Positions 2,470 to 61,242 of a stretch of DNA of 64,000 bases are shown piece by piece. A model generated the notes under the pieces. It was not told where the DNA came from. It did not search any database and saw only the letters and a list, made by a program, of their open reading frames with translations. The translations under genes were made by a program, and so were the position numbers. How positions within the stretch are numbered: the stretch's first letter is position 1; each line of letters begins with the position of its first letter. Origin of the DNA: Bacilli bacterium (lineage in GTDB: Bacteria; Bacillota_I; Bacilli_A; RF39; UBA660); NCBI GenBank assembly GCA_017432825.1, contig JAFRIJ010000011.1, positions 34,591 through 98,590 on the forward strand, given 5' to 3'.

Positions 2470-4566
2470 CTATTTTTGAAATTGAGAATTATATAAATCT
2501 GCATAGAAACCTTTTTTCTTTAATAATTCTTGGTGTGTTCCTTGCTCTATTATATTTCCTTCATTCATTACTAATATTAAGTCTGCATTTTTTATTGTTG
2601 ATAATCTATGAGCAATAATAAATGATGTTTTACCTTCCATTAGTTTATCCATTGCTTTTTGTACTAATTCTTCTGTTCTGGTATCTACATTTGATGTTGC
2701 CTCATCTAATATTAAGAATGGTGCATCTTCTATCATTCCTCTTGTTATTGTAAGTAATTGTTTTTGTCCTGATGATATGGAATCATTATCTCCCACCATG
2801 GAATCTAATCCTCCTGGTAGTGTTTTAATAAAATGATCTACTCCTACTATTTTACATATTTTCCATATTTCTTCGTCAGTAATATCCTTTTTATTAAATT
2901 TTAGATTATCTCTAATTGTTCCTTCAAATAGCCATGTATCTTGTAATACCATTACAAATAAATCATGAATGTTTTCTCTTTTTAGTTCTTTTATTGTTTT
3001 ACCATCTATTAAAATATCACCTGAATTAATATCATAGAATTTCATTAATAAGTTTACCATGGTTGTTTTTCCTGCTCCGGTTGGACCTACTATTGCTATT
3101 TTTTCTCCTTTATTTACTTTAGCACTGAAATCTTTAATTATTGTTCTAGATTCATCATAACCAAATTTTACATTTTTAAATTCTATATTCCCTTTGGCAT
3201 CTTTTTTTTCAATTTTTTCTTTTAAATTAGATTCATCAGTCATTTCTTTTTCATCCATTAATTCGAATACTCTTTCTCCGGCTGCTGCTATAGATTGCAT
3301 TGTTGTCATTGCTTGAGCTATTCTTGTTAATGGATTTGTAAATAGTCTTATATATATCATAAATGCTACTATTGTTCCAAATGATGTTTTATGATTCATT
3401 ACTAATAGGGCACCTACTACACATACTGCTACATATCCAAAATTACCTACAAAACTCATTATTGGTTGCATTATGCCAGATAGGAATTGGCTTTTTCTAT
3501 TACAATTATATAGTTTTTCATTTATATTATCAAATTCTTTTCTTGCTTGTTCTTCACCATTATAGGCTTTTACTACATTGTGTCCCGAATATATTTCTTC
3601 AATATGTCCATTTAACTTTCCTAATTCTTTTTGTCTTTGAATAAAGTATTTTTGTGATCTTTTTAATAAGAAGAAAGAAAATATAAATCCTAGAATACTT
3701 GATGCTATAGCAGTTAAAGCCATTATCCAATTGGTTACAAACATCATTATAATTGAACCTAAGAATAGTGTTATATTTGTTATTAGAGATGTTATATTAT
3801 CACTCATATTTATTCCAATGGTATCTACATCATTTGTTACTCTTGATAATACATCACCTACTTCATGTGAATCAAAATATCTTAGTGGTAATTTATTTAT
3901 TTTAATACTTATTTCTTTTCTTAATCTTTTTGAATATCCTATTCCTACATATGCCATAATTAATCCTTCAATATATCCAAATAATGAATTTAATAAGTAT
4001 ATTATTGCTAAGATTAATGATCTTTTATGTAGTTCTTTTATATTTAGTTTTGGTTCAACTAATTTTTTTATTGATTTAGGCATTTTTTCTAATTTAATTA
4101 TGTATTCTTCTGTTACCATTGTTTCATCTATTGATGATGTTAACTCTATAAATTTAATTTGATCACTTACGGATATTATTTTATTTTTTATACTTATTGG
4201 TGTTAGTATTGATTCTTTTTCTTCTATGCTTAAATTATTAAATTCTGTAATAATTTGTTTTATACTATCTTTATTATTATAATCTATAGTTACTTTCTTT
4301 TTTAGTTGATAATTTACTATGGTGTTTTTATATATATTTTCAGATATTAACTGAATATTTTCTGTATTTGGCTTTATGCCATCGCTTATTACATTTGTTA
4401 CATCTGATAGTTTATTGGGAGCTATTGTTGATAATATGGCTGCTATCATTGCTAATATTGAAGCTATTATTAGTAGGTAACGCCACTCTTCTAGGCTTTT
4501 AAATAACCTTATGATGGTACCTTTAAAATCTTTTACTTTTTCTTCTACATGATTATGTCTAGGCAT
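2470..4566 (-). CDS. ABC exporter, fused permease-ATPase; the subunit of a heterodimeric exporter with the canonical ATPase site. It carries an extracytoplasmic insertion of about 150 aa after TM1.
   Basis: Walker A GPTGAGKTT, signature LSGGQKQ, Walker B LILDEATS, H-loop. The long hydrophilic loop between TM1 and TM2 resembles the BmrCD type. Confidence 0.85.
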   Translation of the reverse strand: MPRHNHVEEKVKDFKGTIIRLFKSLEEWRYLLIIASILAMIAAILSTIAPNKLSDVTNVISDGIKPNTENIQLISENIYKNTIVNYQLKKKVTIDYNNKDSIKQIITEFNNLSIEEKESILTPISIKNKIISVSDQIKFIELTSSIDETMVTEEYIIKLEKMPKSIKKLVEPKLNIKELHKRSLILAIIYLLNSLFGYIEGLIMAYVGIGYSKRLRKEISIKINKLPLRYFDSHEVGDVLSRVTNDVDTIGINMSDNITSLITNITLFLGSIIMMFVTNWIMALTAIASSILGFIFSFFLLKRSQKYFIQRQKELGKLNGHIEEIYSGHNVVKAYNGEEQARKEFDNINEKLYNCNRKSQFLSGIMQPIMSFVGNFGYVAVCVVGALLVMNHKTSFGTIVAFMIYIRLFTNPLTRIAQAMTTMQSIAAAGERVFELMDEKEMTDESNLKEKIEKKDAKGNIEFKNVKFGYDESRTIIKDFSAKVNKGEKIAIVGPTGAGKTTMVNLLMKFYDINSGDILIDGKTIKELKRENIHDLFVMVLQDTWLFEGTIRDNLKFNKKDITDEEIWKICKIVGVDHFIKTLPGGLDSMVGDNDSISSGQKQLLTITRGMIEDAPFLILDEATSNVDTRTEELVQKAMDKLMEGKTSFIIAHRLSTIKNADLILVMNEGNIIEQGTHQELLKKKGFYADLYNSQFQK

Positions 4567-56047: not shown

Positions 56048-57181
56048 TTAATCGCTAAAATCATTATCTATTATTACATAATAAGTATAGTTTGGATATA
56101 ATTTTTTTATTTCATTTATAACTTTTCTTTTTATTTTTTCTGGAGATTTAGTATTAAAATCTACAATTATATCAAAGTTTATTTGATTTTTTTTGCTATC
56201 TATATAAAATCCATGTAATTGTAATATTTCTTTATAATTAGATATTATTTTTTCTAAATCAGTTTTAATTTTTAATGATTCTTTATCACTTGTATTAGAT
56301 GCATATATTCCAATTGTTAGGATTATTCCAAAGGATGTATATATTTTCTTTTCTATTTCTTTGGTTAAAATATGTATTTCTTTTGCAGTCATAGTATCTT
56401 TTACTTGGATATGGACTGATCCAATCATTTGCATTGGTCCATAGTTGTGTAATACTAAATCATAAGTTCCTTCAACTTCAGGATATAAATTTATTGCTTC
56501 TTTTAATTTTATAGCTAATTCTTTATTAACCCTGGTTCCTATTAATTCACTTGATGTTTCTTTTAATAATTCAATGCTTGATTTAAGTATAAATAGTGAT
56601 ATTAATAGTCCTATTATTCCTTCTATATTTATTTTAAATAATAAATAAGATAAAATTGCTATAAGGGTTCCTGTGGATAATATTGCATCAAATAAGGCAT
56701 CTGTTCCAGATGCTATTAAACTTCCTGAATTTATTTTGTTTCCTATATTTTTAACATAACTTCCTAATAATATTTTAACTATTATAGCTGTTATTATTAT
56801 TATAATTGTATATACTGTATAATTTGGTTTGGTTGGATTTATTATATTAGTAAATGATTCTTTTAAGGATAATACTCCTGCTACTAGAATAATTATTCCT
56901 ATAATAATAGATGTAAAATATTCTATTCTTCCATGTCCATAGGGATGTTCTTTATCTGGAGCTTTTGTTGATAATTTAGTTCCAATTATGGTTATAATTG
57001 ATGATAGGGCATCTGTTAAGTTGTTTATAGCATCTAATATTATAGCTATTGAATTGGCAATAAATCCTATTATTAATTTAAATATTACTAATAATATATT
57101 AACTATTATTCCTTTAATACTTGTTTTAATTATTTTGTTTTGACGTTCCATTATTACTCCTTTATATATAAATGTCTTCAT
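56048..57181 (-). CDS. Cation diffusion facilitator family transporter
   Basis: Six TM helices, an EHPYGHGR motif, and a C-terminal cytoplasmic domain. Confidence 0.8.
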   Translation of the reverse strand: MKTFIYKGVIMERQNKIIKTSIKGIIVNILLVIFKLIIGFIANSIAIILDAINNLTDALSSIITIIGTKLSTKAPDKEHPYGHGRIEYFTSIIIGIIILVAGVLSLKESFTNIINPTKPNYTVYTIIIIITAIIVKILLGSYVKNIGNKINSGSLIASGTDALFDAILSTGTLIAILSYLLFKINIEGIIGLLISLFILKSSIELLKETSSELIGTRVNKELAIKLKEAINLYPEVEGTYDLVLHNYGPMQMIGSVHIQVKDTMTAKEIHILTKEIEKKIYTSFGIILTIGIYASNTSDKESLKIKTDLEKIISNYKEILQLHGFYIDSKKNQINFDIIVDFNTKSPEKIKRKVINEIKKLYPNYTYYVIIDNDFSD

Positions 57182-57237
57182 AATAATATTTATTATTTAT
57201 TGTTTAATATTATTATTAAAAAACTCAATTTAGAGTT

Positions 57238-57669
57238 TTAATTTATTTTATTTAGTATTTTATATAATATTTTATATAAGTCTACACTTTCTTTTTTTGT
57301 TAAATTTAGGCATTTACCAATACTGGTTGGTATATCTTTTGCTAATATCTTTAATTCTTCTCCTTTTGGTGTTATAGATATAATTAGTTTTCTTTCATCT
57401 TTTGATGATTTATTTCTTTTAATATATTGTTTATTTTCTAGCTTTTTTAATAGTGGAGTTAGTGTTCCTGAATCTAAATATAATTTGTCTCCTAGTGATT
57501 TAACGTTTATTTCTTTTTCTTCCCATAAAACCATCATTGTAATATATTGTGTGTATGTTAATCCTAATTTATCTAAATACGGTTTATATTTTTTTATTAT
57601 TTCTTTTGAACATACGTATAAAGGAAAACATAGTTGATTTTCTATTGTTAACAAATCTATATTATCCAT
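57238..57669 (-). CDS. ohrR: MarR-family organic hydroperoxide sensor and repressor (OhrR-like)
   Basis: The reactive-Cys context LTIENQLCFPLYVCSKE and ...LGDKLYLDSGTLTPLLKKLE... track B. subtilis OhrR closely. Confidence 0.8.
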   Translation of the reverse strand: MDNIDLLTIENQLCFPLYVCSKEIIKKYKPYLDKLGLTYTQYITMMVLWEEKEINVKSLGDKLYLDSGTLTPLLKKLENKQYIKRNKSSKDERKLIISITPKGEELKILAKDIPTSIGKCLNLTKKESVDLYKILYKILNKIN

Positions 57670-57671
57670 AT

Positions 57672-57983
57672 TTATTTTTCTATTATTTCTTTTAGTTCTT
57701 CTTTTGTTTTTAGTCCTATAGATTTTGCTACTTCTTTACCATCTTTAAATATTAATACTGTTGGTATAGACATTATACCATATTCTCTTGATACTTCTTC
57801 TGCGTCATCTACATTTAATTTATAGAATTCACAACTATCTATTTCACTTGCTAATTCATCAATTATTGGTGATAACATTCTACATGGTCCACACCAATCA
57901 GCATAACAATCAACTAATACTTTTTTCTCCTTATTATTAATAACTTCTTTAAAATCTTTTTCTTCTATTTTTTTTACACTCAT
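57672..57983 (-). CDS. trxA: Thioredoxin
   Basis: WCGPC active site; 103 aa. Confidence 0.85.
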   Translation of the reverse strand: MSVKKIEEKDFKEVINNKEKKVLVDCYADWCGPCRMLSPIIDELASEIDSCEFYKLNVDDAEEVSREYGIMSIPTVLIFKDGKEVAKSIGLKTKEELKEIIEK

Positions 57984-58882
57984 TATTCATCTCTCCTTAA
58001 TTCTTTTATAGCAGTTGTTGCTGCTATACTTCCATCACTTACTGCAGTTGTTAATTGCCTTAATGTTTTTACTCTAGTATCTCCAGCTACATATATTCCT
58101 TCTATATTTGTATGTACTCCATCTTCTGATTCGATATAGCCATAGTCATTAATTTTAATTAAATTAGCAAATATTTCATTCTTAGGGCTTTGTCCTACCG
58201 CTATAAATAATCCTGATATAGATATTTCTTTAGTATTGTTATCTTTATCTGTTACTTCAATACTTTCTATTTTATCTTCTCCATTTAATTTGGTAATATT
58301 AGAGTTTAATATTATTTCAATATTATCTTTCTTTTTTATATCACTTAAATATCTAGATTCTCCTCTAAAGTTATCTCTTCTATGGATTAAATATACTTTT
58401 TTTGCTATATTTGATAAATATATAGCATCTTCTAAGGCAGTGTTCCCTCCACCTACTACTGCTACTACTTTATTTTTAAAGAAATTTCCATCACATGTTG
58501 CACAATAAGATACTCCTTTACCTACAAATTCTTCTTCTTTTGGTATATTTAATTTTCTGTTTTCAGCACCTGTTGCTAGAATAATTGCTTTTGCTTGGTA
58601 AGTTCCTTTATTAGTAGTTACTTTCTTGTCTTCATCAATGTGAAGTGCTGTTTCAAATTTTATTTCTGTATCTAATTCTTTTACTTGATTATACATATTA
58701 GTTGCCAAGTCAAAGCCTGATATATTTGGTATTCCTGGGTAGTTTTCTACGTTGCTAGCGTTTATTATTTGTCCACCATAGCTTTTTGCTTCTAATACTA
58801 ATACTTTTTTATTAGCTCTTCGTGCATATAATGCTGCTGTTAATCCTGCTGGCCCTGCTCCAATTATTATTATATCATACAT
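57983..58882 (-). CDS. trxB: Thioredoxin-disulfide reductase
   Basis: FAD motif GAGPAG, redox CATC, NADPH motif; 299 aa. Confidence 0.9.
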   Translation of the reverse strand: MYDIIIIGAGPAGLTAALYARRANKKVLVLEAKSYGGQIINASNVENYPGIPNISGFDLATNMYNQVKELDTEIKFETALHIDEDKKVTTNKGTYQAKAIILATGAENRKLNIPKEEEFVGKGVSYCATCDGNFFKNKVVAVVGGGNTALEDAIYLSNIAKKVYLIHRRDNFRGESRYLSDIKKKDNIEIILNSNITKLNGEDKIESIEVTDKDNNTKEISISGLFIAVGQSPKNEIFANLIKINDYGYIESEDGVHTNIEGIYVAGDTRVKTLRQLTTAVSDGSIAATTAIKELRRDE

Positions 58883-58890
58883 GTTATCAC

Positions 58891-59433
58891 CTATCCTAGT
58901 AATTCTATTATTGTTTTTTCCATTTTCATTGGATCTTCTATTGGTGAGTATCTTGCTACTATGTTTCCTTCTTTATCAATAATAAATTTTGTAAAGTTCC
59001 ATATTATATCGTTTTCTTTTTTACAAGTAGTACTTATCTTTTTAACAGCAGACATAGCCATTTTATTTTTTAGTCCTTCTAATATTTCTTTTGGAGAATT
59101 ATCTTTTATATATTTAAATAATGGTAATTCGTTTTCTCCATTTACTTCTATTTTTTTGAATCTATCAAATGATGTATTATATTTACTTGTACAAAATTCA
59201 TGGATTTCATCATCAGTTCCTGGTGCTTGATGTCCAAATTGATCACATGGAAAATCTAATATTTCTAATCCTTTTTTATGATATTTTTGATATAGTTTTT
59301 CTAATGCTTCATATTGTGGAGTAAATCCACATCCTGTAGCAGTATTTACTATTATTAATACTTTCCCTTTATAATCCTTTAAATTTATTTCTTCGTCTTC
59401 TTTATTTTTTACTTTAAAATCATATATACTCAT
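58891..59433 (-). CDS. gpx: Glutathione peroxidase-family thiol peroxidase. The true start is the Met of MSIYDF..., with a gaaagagagg RBS; the ORF-track TTG start at 59466 is an over-extension.
   Basis: Gpx motifs VNTATGCGFT and FPCDQFGHQAPG. Confidence 0.85.
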   Translation of the reverse strand: MSIYDFKVKNKEDEEINLKDYKGKVLIIVNTATGCGFTPQYEALEKLYQKYHKKGLEILDFPCDQFGHQAPGTDDEIHEFCTSKYNTSFDRFKKIEVNGENELPLFKYIKDNSPKEILEGLKNKMAMSAVKKISTTCKKENDIIWNFTKFIIDKEGNIVARYSPIEDPMKMEKTIIELLG

Positions 59434-59454
59434 TATAGCCTCTCTTTCATTTTT

Positions 59455-59468
59455 AATTGTATACAATT
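59455..59468. promoter_or_regulatory. Candidate OhrR operator (a perfect 14-bp palindrome) overlapping the gpx transcription start region
   Basis: AATTGTATACAATT lies immediately downstream of the -10 box. It matches the core of the B. subtilis ohrA operator (TACAATT/AATTGTA inverted repeats). Confidence 0.55.
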
Positions 59469-59470
59469 GA

Positions 59471-59500
59471 ATTATAGCATTTCGTTGTTTAGATTGTCAA
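59471..59500 (-). promoter_or_regulatory. Sigma-A type promoter for the gpx-trxB-trxA-ohrR operon
   Basis: On the minus strand it reads TTGACA-N18-TATAAT, with the -35 box at 59495-59500 and the -10 box at 59471-59476. Confidence 0.5.
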
Positions 59501-59510
59501 GTATATATAA

Positions 59511-59536
59511 TAACAAAAAAAGAGAATAAATTCTCT
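59511..59536 (-). terminator. Terminator at the fic stop codon
   Basis: Stem agagaa/ttctct with a taaa loop, followed on the minus strand by TTTTTT. Confidence 0.4.
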
Positions 59537-60492
59537 TAATGTAATTTTTGTATTTTCATTGATTTTATTTTCTGATTAATTGATTCATTTTTTAATGATG
59601 GATTTTCTATATTGAATAAATATCTATTTTTATTTTTTAATTCATTACTTAAATAAAATAATTGTTCATCAGTCATATTTAAACAGAAATCAAACCATTT
59701 ATTTATTTCATCATTACAATCATGTTTTACATCAAAGTATATACTATCTAATGCATGTACGTATGATGGTTGATTTAATAAAATACTATTTGATATATGT
59801 AATGGAGATATTTTTAAGTTTGTTTTATATATTTTATTTATTAATTCAGTAAATTTCATATCATATAGTAATCTTGCTGTTCTTCCATTTCCATCACCAA
59901 ACGGATGAATTCTAATAAATAATAATGTTATTAAAGCACTTTTTAGAAAGGGATTACTGTTTAATAAAGATAATGAATTTGCTTTATATTCTTTAATATA
60001 ATCATCCATAAATTTTTTTATATCTTCTGGTTCTGCTCCATACCAATAGATATGTTTTTCATTATCTTTAACATAACCTACCCATGCTTCTTCTTTTCTA
60101 TAATCATCTATTGTTTCTTTTTCAAGTGCAAATTTATGTAAATTTTTTATTCTTTGATGATTTATGTTTAATGTATAATAAAAGATATTATTCTCATTTA
60201 TTTTAGAATAATTAGAAGTATGATTTTCAATTAGATTAGAATCTACTATTTCTTTTTCAAATGAGTTAATTAAAAAAGATGCTACTATATCTGGGTCATA
60301 GCTACTTAATAATTTTATATATTTATCAAAATCCTTTGATGTTTCTTCTAAATGATATAGTAAATTGGAATTTAATTTAATTCTACTTATGTATTCTTCT
60401 AATGGAAAATACTCTACTCTTTCTAAATTACAACAATTCTCTGGTCCCATAATTATCCCCCTTTTTTCAAGTTGTTTGATATTATACCACAA
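59536..60492 (-). CDS. Fic-family protein (class II, carrying an intramolecular inhibitory S-x-x-x-E-N motif)
   Basis: Fic motif HPFGDGNGRTAR. An N-terminal SNLIEN matches the [S/T]xxxE[G/N] inhibitory helix. Confidence 0.8.
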   Translation of the reverse strand: MWYNIKQLEKRGIIMGPENCCNLERVEYFPLEEYISRIKLNSNLLYHLEETSKDFDKYIKLLSSYDPDIVASFLINSFEKEIVDSNLIENHTSNYSKINENNIFYYTLNINHQRIKNLHKFALEKETIDDYRKEEAWVGYVKDNEKHIYWYGAEPEDIKKFMDDYIKEYKANSLSLLNSNPFLKSALITLLFIRIHPFGDGNGRTARLLYDMKFTELINKIYKTNLKISPLHISNSILLNQPSYVHALDSIYFDVKHDCNDEINKWFDFCLNMTDEQLFYLSNELKNKNRYLFNIENPSLKNESINQKIKSMKIQKLH

Positions 60493-60538: not shown

Positions 60539-60913
60539 TTAATTATTATTTTTATATTCTCTTATTATCCATTCTAGTAATAGTGCTACTACATAGTTTA
60601 TTTCATTATTTGTAAGCTCTCTTCCTTTAGGAATATGATGCCATTTTTCTAAACAATTTCTACAACAACATGCACAGGCATGTTGTGCTATGAATACAGG
60701 GTGTCCTTTCATTGGTGTTTGTTTTCCATCATTAACTGGATTAGCTCCAGCTAATCTTTCTTTTATAAAGTCATAGGCATGATCTTTTATTTTATTCATA
60801 CCTATATTATTTATATAATCTATCATATATTTTCTTAGTTTAAAACTAGATCTAAATTTTGATTTAGATAAATCTTCTAATTTTTTGTTAATTATTTCTT
60901 TATTATTTCCCAT
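60539..60913 (-). CDS. DUF4186-family protein
   Basis: ...GHPVFIAQHACACCCRNCLEKWHHIPKGRELT... is the conserved Cys-rich DUF4186 core. Confidence 0.55.
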   Translation of the reverse strand: MGNNKEIINKKLEDLSKSKFRSSFKLRKYMIDYINNIGMNKIKDHAYDFIKERLAGANPVNDGKQTPMKGHPVFIAQHACACCCRNCLEKWHHIPKGRELTNNEINYVVALLLEWIIREYKNNN

Positions 60914-61242
60914 TCTGATTCTTTAAATCCTATTAGTATTATATCATTATCAATTAATAGTGGTCTTTTTATTAACATAGCATTATTTGATAATAGTTCT
61001 ATTTTTTCATCTTTAGTCATTTTATCTAGTTTTTCTTTTAAATTTAATTTTCTATAGATTAAACCACTGGTATTAAATAATTTATTAATATTTATTTTGT
61101 ATTTATTTATCAAACTATTTATTTCTGTTTTAGTAGGTGTATTTTCTTTTATTTCTCTATTTATATATTTAATGTTATTAATATTTAAATATTCTTTTGC
61201 TTTTTTACATGTACTACATTTGCTATATCCAATTAATTCCAT
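60892..61242 (-). CDS. ArsC/Spx/MgsR-family protein with a thioredoxin-like fold and an N-terminal CxxC
   Basis: MELIGYSKCSTCKKAKEYL...LIKRPLLID..ILIGFKESEW; 116 aa. It overlaps the DUF4186 gene by 22 nt. Confidence 0.7.
   Translation of the reverse strand: MELIGYSKCSTCKKAKEYLNINNIKYINREIKENTPTKTEINSLINKYKININKLFNTSGLIYRKLNLKEKLDKMTKDEKIELLSNNAMLIKRPLLIDNDIILIGFKESEWEIIKK

Follow-up and report, generated by a model that had tools for sequence, protein, structure and literature searches.

The 64-kb stretch of DNA analysed here, referred to throughout as the window, derives from an uncultured, very AT-rich gut bacterium (23.6% GC). On its minus strand, between positions 57238 and 59500, lie four genes in the order gpx, trxB, trxA and a gene encoding a regulator of the MarR/OhrR family. 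The features described below suggest that these genes form one peroxide-stress operon controlled by the product of its own last gene. The genes and the elements that surround them are as follows.

gpx, 59433-58891, minus strand: 180 amino acids (aa), ATG start; Cys-type peroxidase of the glutathione-peroxidase fold, predicted to be thioredoxin-dependent (Pfam GSHPx, 2.5e-40).
trxB, 58882-57983, minus strand: 299 aa; low-molecular-weight thioredoxin-disulfide reductase, with a CATC active site and an HRRDNFR motif.
trxA, 57983-57672, minus strand: thioredoxin of 103 aa, WCGPC.
Regulator gene, 57669-57238, minus strand: 143 aa; putative thiol-based repressor of the OhrR family (MarR superfamily), with Cys14 (predicted sensing residue), Cys20, Cys120 (putative resolving residue), Tyr28 and Tyr39.
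Promoter, 59471-59500, minus strand: sigma-70 type; TTGACA at 59500-59495, a spacer of 18 nucleotides (nt) and TGcTATAAT, with the -10 box at 59476-59471.
Candidate operator, 59447-59476, minus strand: perfect palindrome AATTGTATACAATT at 59468-59455, within a 30-nt stretch resembling the Bacillus subtilis ohrA operator.
Ribosome-binding site, 59439-59444, minus strand: GAGAGG, 5 nt upstream of the gpx start codon, identified by direct reading of the sequence.
Upstream hairpin, 59514-59537, minus strand: follows the fic gene; 7-bp stem, folding free energy -5.3 kcal/mol, z = -2.2, then UUUUUUU.
Downstream hairpin, 57220-57239, minus strand: AT-rich, with a U-run, past the regulator stop codon; folding free energy -6.1 kcal/mol, z = -2.7.

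An earlier reading of this region made from its sequence (the original prediction) had given the same gene order, with the genes closely spaced or overlapping, and both coordinates and junctions agree with it: gpx and trxB are separated by 8 nt, trxB and trxA overlap by 1 nt (TAATG), and 2 nt separate trxA from the regulator gene, whose product was given there as 144 aa and is 143 aa long. The four genes are translationally coupled. The longest open reading frame (ORF) for gpx would start at a TTG codon at 59466; this start was rejected, as it lies inside the palindrome, has no ribosome-binding site and departs from the independent gene calls on identical or related contigs, which give 180 aa. 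TrxB and TrxA both score above the corresponding NCBIfam equivalog cutoffs (TIGR01292, 363.2 bits vs 343.45; TIGR01068, 124.6 bits vs 96.8), and no second copy of gpx, trxA or trxB is found in the window. Given the 8- and 2-nt gaps, the 1-nt overlap, the presence of a single promoter matching the consensus at 12 of 12 positions and the flanking hairpins, the four genes are likely to form a single operon, co-transcription being deduced from their spacing.

The two hairpins may delimit this operon. That at 59514-59537 is probably an intrinsic terminator insulating the gpx promoter from the gene upstream, and the weak hairpin at 57220-57239 is probably a leaky terminator closing the operon. Neither was reported by a consensus terminator scan, which missed them because they contain few G-C pairs. 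Since both are weak and AT-rich, the operon boundaries are probable, not certain. An Rfam search of 56900-59800 at E ≤ 1 returned no RNA family, and thus no known riboswitch or leader.

Upstream of gpx, a promoter scan confirmed the TTGACA-N18-TATAAT element described in the original prediction: it matches the consensus at 12/12 positions, carries an extended -10 TG, and is the sole such site in 56900-59800, where all other candidates reach 9/12. The palindrome that had been described as abutting the -10 box is indeed perfect and located there, except that it begins 2 nt past the box and so does not strictly abut it. AAAA directly follows AATTGTATACAATT, the expected transcription start, at around 59463-59465, falls within it, and around it extends an imperfect inverted repeat of 20 nt (59471-59452), 90% complementary, which includes the last base of the -10 box. 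Thus, a candidate AT-rich inverted-repeat operator, containing the family core AATT-N-AATT, overlaps the gpx promoter.

We then compared this site with TACAATTAAATTGTATACAATTAAATTGTA, the B. subtilis ohrA operator sequence employed in binding assays (PMC2651793). Of the 30 nt at 59476-59447, 24 are identical to it, among them all of the central AATTGTATACAATTAAA; this is the best match in the window and bears out the proposal that the palindrome corresponds to the core of the B. subtilis OhrR operator. The only other match above 21 in the window scores 23 and is assumed, its position unchecked, to be the reverse-strand reading of the same near-palindromic site. The exact 14-mer AATTGTATACAATT is unique in the window, even when up to 2 mismatches are allowed, and a first-order Markov model predicts 0.007 occurrences per window. 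Perfect 14-nt palindromes of any sequence number 25 in the window against 16.7 ± 3.9 expected from Markov shuffles; a perfect palindrome of this length is therefore not rare in itself here, and what counts is its specific sequence, position and conservation. An alternative half-site arrangement, TACAATT-N2-AATTGTA with up to 3 mismatches, was also searched for and is uninformative in so AT-rich a window (33 matches vs 34 expected).

To follow the system in other organisms, one genome per species was scanned using the aligned sequences of the regulator and homologous proteins, and the best 80 of at least 597 matching stretches were analysed. In these 80 loci, which total 588 kb and range in GC content from 0.23 to 0.61, the regulator is 52-70% identical to that of the window. 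Their hosts are Lachnospiraceae, Oscillospiraceae, Ruminococcus, Christensenellaceae, Erysipelotrichales, Acholeplasmatales/‘Tenericutes’, Mogibacterium, Treponema and other Spirochaetes. The original prediction had made its case depend on the palindrome being conserved upstream of gpx in relatives, and the conservation found is strong: with up to 2 mismatches, 56 matches occur in the 80 loci, compared with 7.3 ± 2.7 in shuffled sequences. Fifty of the 56 lie no more than 160 bp upstream of gpx (33), the regulator gene (15) or trx genes (2), and among the 6 that could not be so classified, 3 precede the unit (2 just upstream of a flavodoxin-like head gene and 1 at 232 bp before the regulator gene). 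These sites span the full range of GC content, 0.23-0.61, and include both Bacillota and Spirochaetota. In four loci, palindromes are found in tandem 15 bp apart, which is the half-site periodicity, or alternating array, of the B. subtilis operator. When six promoters from the window’s closest relatives were aligned, conservation was seen in the block ATTGTATaCAAT between diverging flanks, and 5 of the 6 retain the -35 box.

Gene content is conserved along with the operator. The gpx gene is adjacent to the regulator gene in at least 49 of the 80 loci, and in at least 47 it shares the strand of the regulator gene and is no more than 1.5 kb away; trxA and/or trxB are adjacent in at least 14. All these counts are lower bounds because some contigs end nearby. 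The orders observed (REG being the regulator gene) include gpx-REG, REG-gpx, gpx-REG-trxA-trxB, trxA-gpx-REG, gpx-trxB-REG, REG-gpx-trxA-trxB and trxB-trxA-REG, indicating that linkage has been maintained through rearrangements. The exact gpx-trxB-trxA-regulator cassette persists in the closest relatives (73-82% identity), also in those with other genes on either side of it. The statement that no ohrA-like gene is present in the window also holds, as no OsmC/Ohr-family protein was found among its ORFs of 112-170 aa or in one further ORF of 184 aa. Similarly, for the 80 loci none appeared among the 25 most frequent Pfam families listed in a census of 65 neighbouring ORFs of Ohr size, which would have shown even one match if stronger than about 1e-17.

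The peroxidase itself was assessed next. Its best matches in the PDB are poplar Gpx5 and yeast Gpx3/Hyr1, both of which are thioredoxin-dependent. Cys35 and Cys81 of the window Gpx align with the peroxidatic Cys36 and resolving Cys82 of yeast Gpx3, and the protein also carries Gln65/69 and Trp145-Asn146, so that the positions of the peroxidatic and resolving cysteines, the glutamine and the Trp-Asn pair are those of yeast Gpx3/Hyr1/Orp1 and poplar Gpx5. None of these residues (the two cysteines, the Gln residues and Trp-Asn) varies among 53 regulator-linked Gpx homologues. The window Gpx differs from the poplar and yeast proteins in an insertion of ~25 residues (roughly 113-140) between the two aligned segments; about half of the regulator-linked homologues are short forms of roughly 157 aa. 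We thus agree with the original prediction that the enzyme is a thioredoxin-dependent peroxidase, predicted here to be of the Cys-GPx type, its turnover by thioredoxin being suggested by the resolving cysteine and by the predicted co-transcription with trxA and trxB.

As for the regulator, its length fits a MarR-type winged helix-turn-helix protein (about 140-150 aa), and Pfam matches are to MarR (5.9e-15) and Staph_reg_Sar_Rot (3.7e-20). The closest solved structure is that of B. subtilis OhrR (2e-35, 49% identity), followed by Staphylococcus aureus SarZ (1.6e-33, 47%), Xanthomonas campestris OhrR (2.8e-27, 45%) and MgrA (7e-23), after which scores drop steeply. The OhrR model of NCBIfam (NF052638) is the top family match, at 164.6 bits against 54 for the next family and below an equivalog cutoff of 200. 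Identities of 45-49% are comparable to that between the OhrR and OspR proteins of Pseudomonas aeruginosa (46.5%; PMC4999210). By sequence comparison, the regulator belongs to the OhrR/SarZ/MgrA branch of MarR, in keeping with its earlier description as OhrR-type.

This placement brings up the most serious of the alternative explanations, namely that the regulator is a general sensor of thiol or disulfide stress like SarZ and MgrA, responding to diamide, HOCl, quinones or overall thiol redox state and tuning thioredoxin supply, with Gpx as a passenger. SarZ scores near OhrR, the OhrR equivalog cutoff is not reached, and the operon holds both trxB and trxA, of which the 64 kb contain no other copy. 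SarZ and MgrA belong to the same MarR sub-branch and have, in a QLCF context, a single N-terminal sensing cysteine; they differ from the window protein in being 1-Cys global regulators that are not in an operon with a peroxidase and have no conserved C-terminal cysteine. We nevertheless regard this explanation as unlikely, primarily because the constant partner of the clade is gpx (49/80) and not trx (14/80). The operator, moreover, is of the OhrR type, and OspR-gpx, which among characterised systems is the nearest with this wiring, has a specific response to organic hydroperoxides (PMC4999210).

The cysteines bear on a second alternative. Cys14, Tyr28 and Tyr39 align with Cys15, Tyr29 and Tyr40 of B. 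subtilis OhrR, in which the two tyrosines surround the reactive cysteine. The N-terminal sensing context ENQLCF reported in the original prediction is present, at Cys14. Among the 80 relatives, Cys14, Cys120 and Tyr28 are each conserved in 80, Tyr39 in 79 and Cys20 in 70. In the HMMER alignment Cys120 pairs with X. campestris OhrR Cys127, which is the resolving residue in the prototype 2-Cys sensor, though the match falls at the end of a pairwise alignment containing a 1-residue gap, and without the gap the two positions are one residue apart. The 106 residues between Cys14 and Cys120 lie between the spacings of the sensing and resolving pairs in X. campestris OhrR (22/127) and OspR (24/134) (PMC4999210). 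B. subtilis OhrR has a Leu (MAFFT alignment) or Gly in the Cys120 column and a Ser in the Cys20 column. Thus, because Cys120 is invariant, lies at or next to Cys127, is spaced within the 2-Cys range (about 102-110) and has no cysteine counterpart in B. subtilis OhrR, we conclude from these alignments that the regulator has a 2-Cys and not a 1-Cys layout. The designation ‘1-Cys OhrR’ in the original prediction is contradicted by the same residues, and Cys20 is a further cysteine that the family keeps. Conversion of B. subtilis OhrR to a 2-Cys protein reportedly works with a cysteine at position 120 or 124.

A true 1-Cys mechanism, in which Cys120 and Cys20 take no part, could still be imagined. 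It would suit the highest identity of the regulator being to the 1-Cys B. subtilis OhrR (49%), as well as the B. subtilis-like operator, and there is the case of P. aeruginosa OhrR, whose C-terminal cysteine is dispensable for sensing (PMC4999210). Yet Cys120 is retained in 80/80 relatives at or next to the position of X. campestris Cys127, where B. subtilis OhrR has Leu or Gly, and its invariance across many families argues for a functional role; we consider a 1-Cys mechanism improbable. Least likely, and very nearly dismissed, is the proposition that the palindrome is not the regulator’s site, the regulator acting elsewhere, the proximity of gpx and trx being mere neighbourhood and the operon being constitutively transcribed from its consensus promoter: perfect 14-nt palindromes are common in this window and the operator is a candidate assigned by sequence, but the specific 14-mer is scarcely expected by chance, keeps its placement in relatives while the flanks diverge, shows about 8-fold enrichment in related loci, where nearly all copies lie upstream of gpx or the regulator gene, and also precedes the regulator gene in loci without gpx.

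We therefore favour the interpretation that gpx-trxB-trxA-ohrR-like is a single autoregulated peroxide-stress operon, under the promoter at 59500-59471 and repressed via AATTGTATACAATT, with a probability of roughly 0.72, and infer that it would function as follows. In reduced cells, the repressor, a dimer of the last gene's product, would occupy the AATTGTATACAATT operator and, since this site extends over the final part of the -10 box and the expected start of transcription, would occlude RNA polymerase. A hydroperoxide, most likely organic or derived from lipid, although H2O2 or O2-derived oxidants are also possible, would oxidise Cys14, located in the NQLCF/Tyr28/Tyr39 pocket, to a sulfenate. 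As in Xanthomonas OhrR and Pseudomonas OspR, this sulfenate would form an intersubunit disulfide with Cys120′ and the repressor would leave the DNA. Derepression would result in co-production of Gpx (peroxidatic Cys35, resolving Cys81) together with the TrxA and TrxB that recycle it, electrons passing from NADPH to TrxB, TrxA, Gpx and finally the hydroperoxide (ROOH). The induced thioredoxin system would probably also re-reduce the repressor, thereby closing a negative feedback loop.

Several observations weigh against this interpretation. The regulator falls short of the OhrR equivalog cutoff (164.6 bits vs 200), and SarZ, a more general thiol-redox regulator, is nearly as similar to it as OhrR is. 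The equivalence of Cys120 and Cys127 depends on the one gap mentioned above, and Cys20, conserved in 70/80 relatives, has no role in the proposed model. Twenty-eight of the 80 loci lack a linked gpx or trx and 39 lack a palindrome with 2 mismatches or fewer, some of these loci being cut by contig ends. For the regulator and its clade, the favoured mechanism is read entirely from sequence. Finally, tight repression is hard to square with a housekeeping role for trxA and trxB, if those in the operon are the only copies (64 kb examined).

The original prediction implied that the control of a Gpx, instead of an Ohr peroxidase, by an OhrR-type sensor was novel, and in this respect it goes too far. 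P. aeruginosa OspR, a 2-Cys OhrR homologue (Cys24/Cys134), autoregulates the gpx-ospR operon (PA2826-PA2825), represses via a promoter-overlapping site of the AATT-N-AATT type and is specific in its response to organic hydroperoxides (PMC4999210). Because the logic of gpx-ospR is experimentally established, an OhrR-type sensor controlling Gpx is not new in principle. By published description, the two systems are alike in having an OhrR homologue downstream of gpx in the same unit, with gpx first, in the 2-Cys layout, and in the AATT-N-AATT core overlapping the promoter. They differ in that gpx-ospR is a proteobacterial two-gene operon without trxB or trxA, whose mapped box, AATTCAA-N-TTGAATT, is unlike the window site; P. 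aeruginosa also has a canonical OhrR-Ohr pair, whereas no Ohr is seen in the window. What sets the present system apart from the OspR precedent is thus its anaerobic Bacillota and Spirochaetota hosts, the trx genes predicted to be co-transcribed, the B. subtilis-like operator and the conserved Cys20.

Other known systems resemble it in part. B. subtilis OhrR-ohrA shares the NQLCF sensing cysteine, the Tyr29/Tyr40 equivalents and an operator overlapping the -10 region, and provides the closest solved structure, but B. subtilis OhrR is a 1-Cys protein that represses a separately encoded Ohr peroxidase of the OsmC family. The window system, in contrast, has a second (and third) conserved cysteine, a GPx-fold enzyme and thioredoxin components as predicted targets, and the regulator as the last gene of the operon. 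X. campestris OhrR shares the N-terminal sensing cysteine and a resolving cysteine about 105 residues further on, with Cys120 and Cys127 aligned as described; it differs in being from a Gram-negative organism, in controlling ohr and not gpx, in an extra Cys131 that is absent here, and in having no counterpart of Cys20. In the literature searched, no Firmicute or anaerobe precedent (Clostridium acetobutylicum included) was found for an OhrR/MarR regulator with gpx, trxB and trxA, nor did that literature yield an account of the present clade. C. acetobutylicum is reported to have a trxA-trxB-gpx operon, which is not counted as evidence here.

Two genes flank the operon.

CDF-family cation efflux gene, 56048-57151, minus strand: immediately downstream of the regulator gene (Pfam Cation_efflux, 1.4e-42).
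Fic-domain protein gene (fic), 59536-60450, minus strand: directly upstream of the gpx promoter (Pfam Fic, 2.7e-13), ending in the hairpin that is probably a terminator.

The start of the CDF gene is placed at 57151 because it is called as 367 aa on related contigs. The gene follows the regulator gene in the window and in its closest relatives (L081-L083, L087-L090), with only the weak hairpin between them. In one other locus (L018:2684-3787) it sits between gpx and the regulator gene, and in the locus L068 it is just upstream of one of two regulator paralogues. It is uncertain, but the CDF gene may be co-expressed with the peroxide response by read-through, contributing metal export. The fic gene is called as 304 aa on related contigs, compared with 318 aa for the longest ORF. 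It lies outside the conserved cassette, since it is present in some relatives and a prenyltransferase gene is found instead in others. Just upstream of it, at 60539-61242 on the minus strand, two coding sequences share 22 nt, one for an ArsC/Spx-family protein (116 aa, N-terminal CSTC) and the other for a DUF4186 protein (124 aa), and the arrangement VanY-ArsC-DUF4186 beside the gpx cassette recurs in two relatives (L083, L084). The ArsC/Spx-family protein may be another thiol-redox component of the neighbourhood. Over the window as a whole, 59 non-overlapping ORFs reach 80 aa or more, 55 of them on the minus strand. None of the 59 ends in TGA (47 TAA, 12 TAG) and no gene is apparently interrupted by TGA, which seems to be essentially unused in this genome.

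Further genes accompany the regulator in related loci. Upstream of it and on the same strand, a small ORF of 85-98 aa is found in 15/80 loci (L005:3525-3806, L007:3690-3986 and 13 others), mostly less than 200 bp away and, in loci that have gpx, situated between it and the regulator gene. Two members were scanned, and both are TSCPD-domain proteins (Pfam PF12637, E-values as low as 6e-28). To our knowledge, stand-alone TSCPD proteins have no established function, and the placement of this ORF suggests a redox or peroxide-related role. Flavodoxin-like proteins (135-186 aa) are encoded immediately upstream of the regulator gene in about 9-10 loci (L029:79-486, L057:3561-3995, L054:3554-3970 and others), and L054 has two operator-like palindromes ahead of the flavodoxin-like gene, the first gene there of a unit that also contains the regulator gene, gpx and trxA.

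Variants of the cassette were also observed. The locus L068, from a Lachnospiraceae metagenome-assembled genome, carries paralogous regulator genes at 1872-2279 and 4001-4423, about 1.7 kb apart, the first closing a gpx-trxB-trxA-regulator cassette and the second following a 138-aa ORF and the CDF gene. On a metagenomic contig of the same species as the window (L089:1741-2394; regulator 100% identical), trxB is called as 217 aa with no Pfam hit and is followed by a 290-nt gap, which could reflect a frameshift, a misassembly or a naturally occurring variant with defective trxB. In four Butyrivibrio loci (L002, L011, L026, L034), the regulator gene is not beside gpx but comes after minC-minD-minE and before an Mrp/NADH-quinone antiporter-like gene. 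An operator-like palindrome lies upstream of it in L026 and L034, suggesting autoregulation with targets elsewhere in the genome.

Taken together, these comparisons indicate that the regulator probably typifies a large and so far uncharacterised clade found in anaerobes of the gut and rumen. A broader proposal, which we hold tentatively and, taken as a whole, at somewhat less than even odds, is that this is a clade of OhrR-like sensors with three conserved cysteines in anaerobic gut and rumen Bacillota and Spirochaetota, in which Ohr has been replaced wholesale by a thioredoxin-dependent GPx module and trxA/trxB, small TSCPD-domain, flavodoxin-like and CDF genes have been recruited repeatedly. 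If so, the module would constitute the principal response of many strict anaerobes to organic and lipid hydroperoxides, and stand-alone TSCPD proteins would gain a first functional context, that of peroxide defence.

No new principle of regulation is involved. The wiring of gpx to an OhrR homologue, studied so far only in Pseudomonas, is common in anaerobic Bacillota and Spirochaetota, and the conserved operator may be used for regulon prediction in metagenome-assembled genomes. With a defined candidate operator, three candidate redox cysteines and a full predicted electron path from NADPH to peroxide in what would be one transcript, the system offers a testable model of how hydroperoxides may be sensed and removed in an uncultured low-GC gut bacterium and in many rumen and gut anaerobes.

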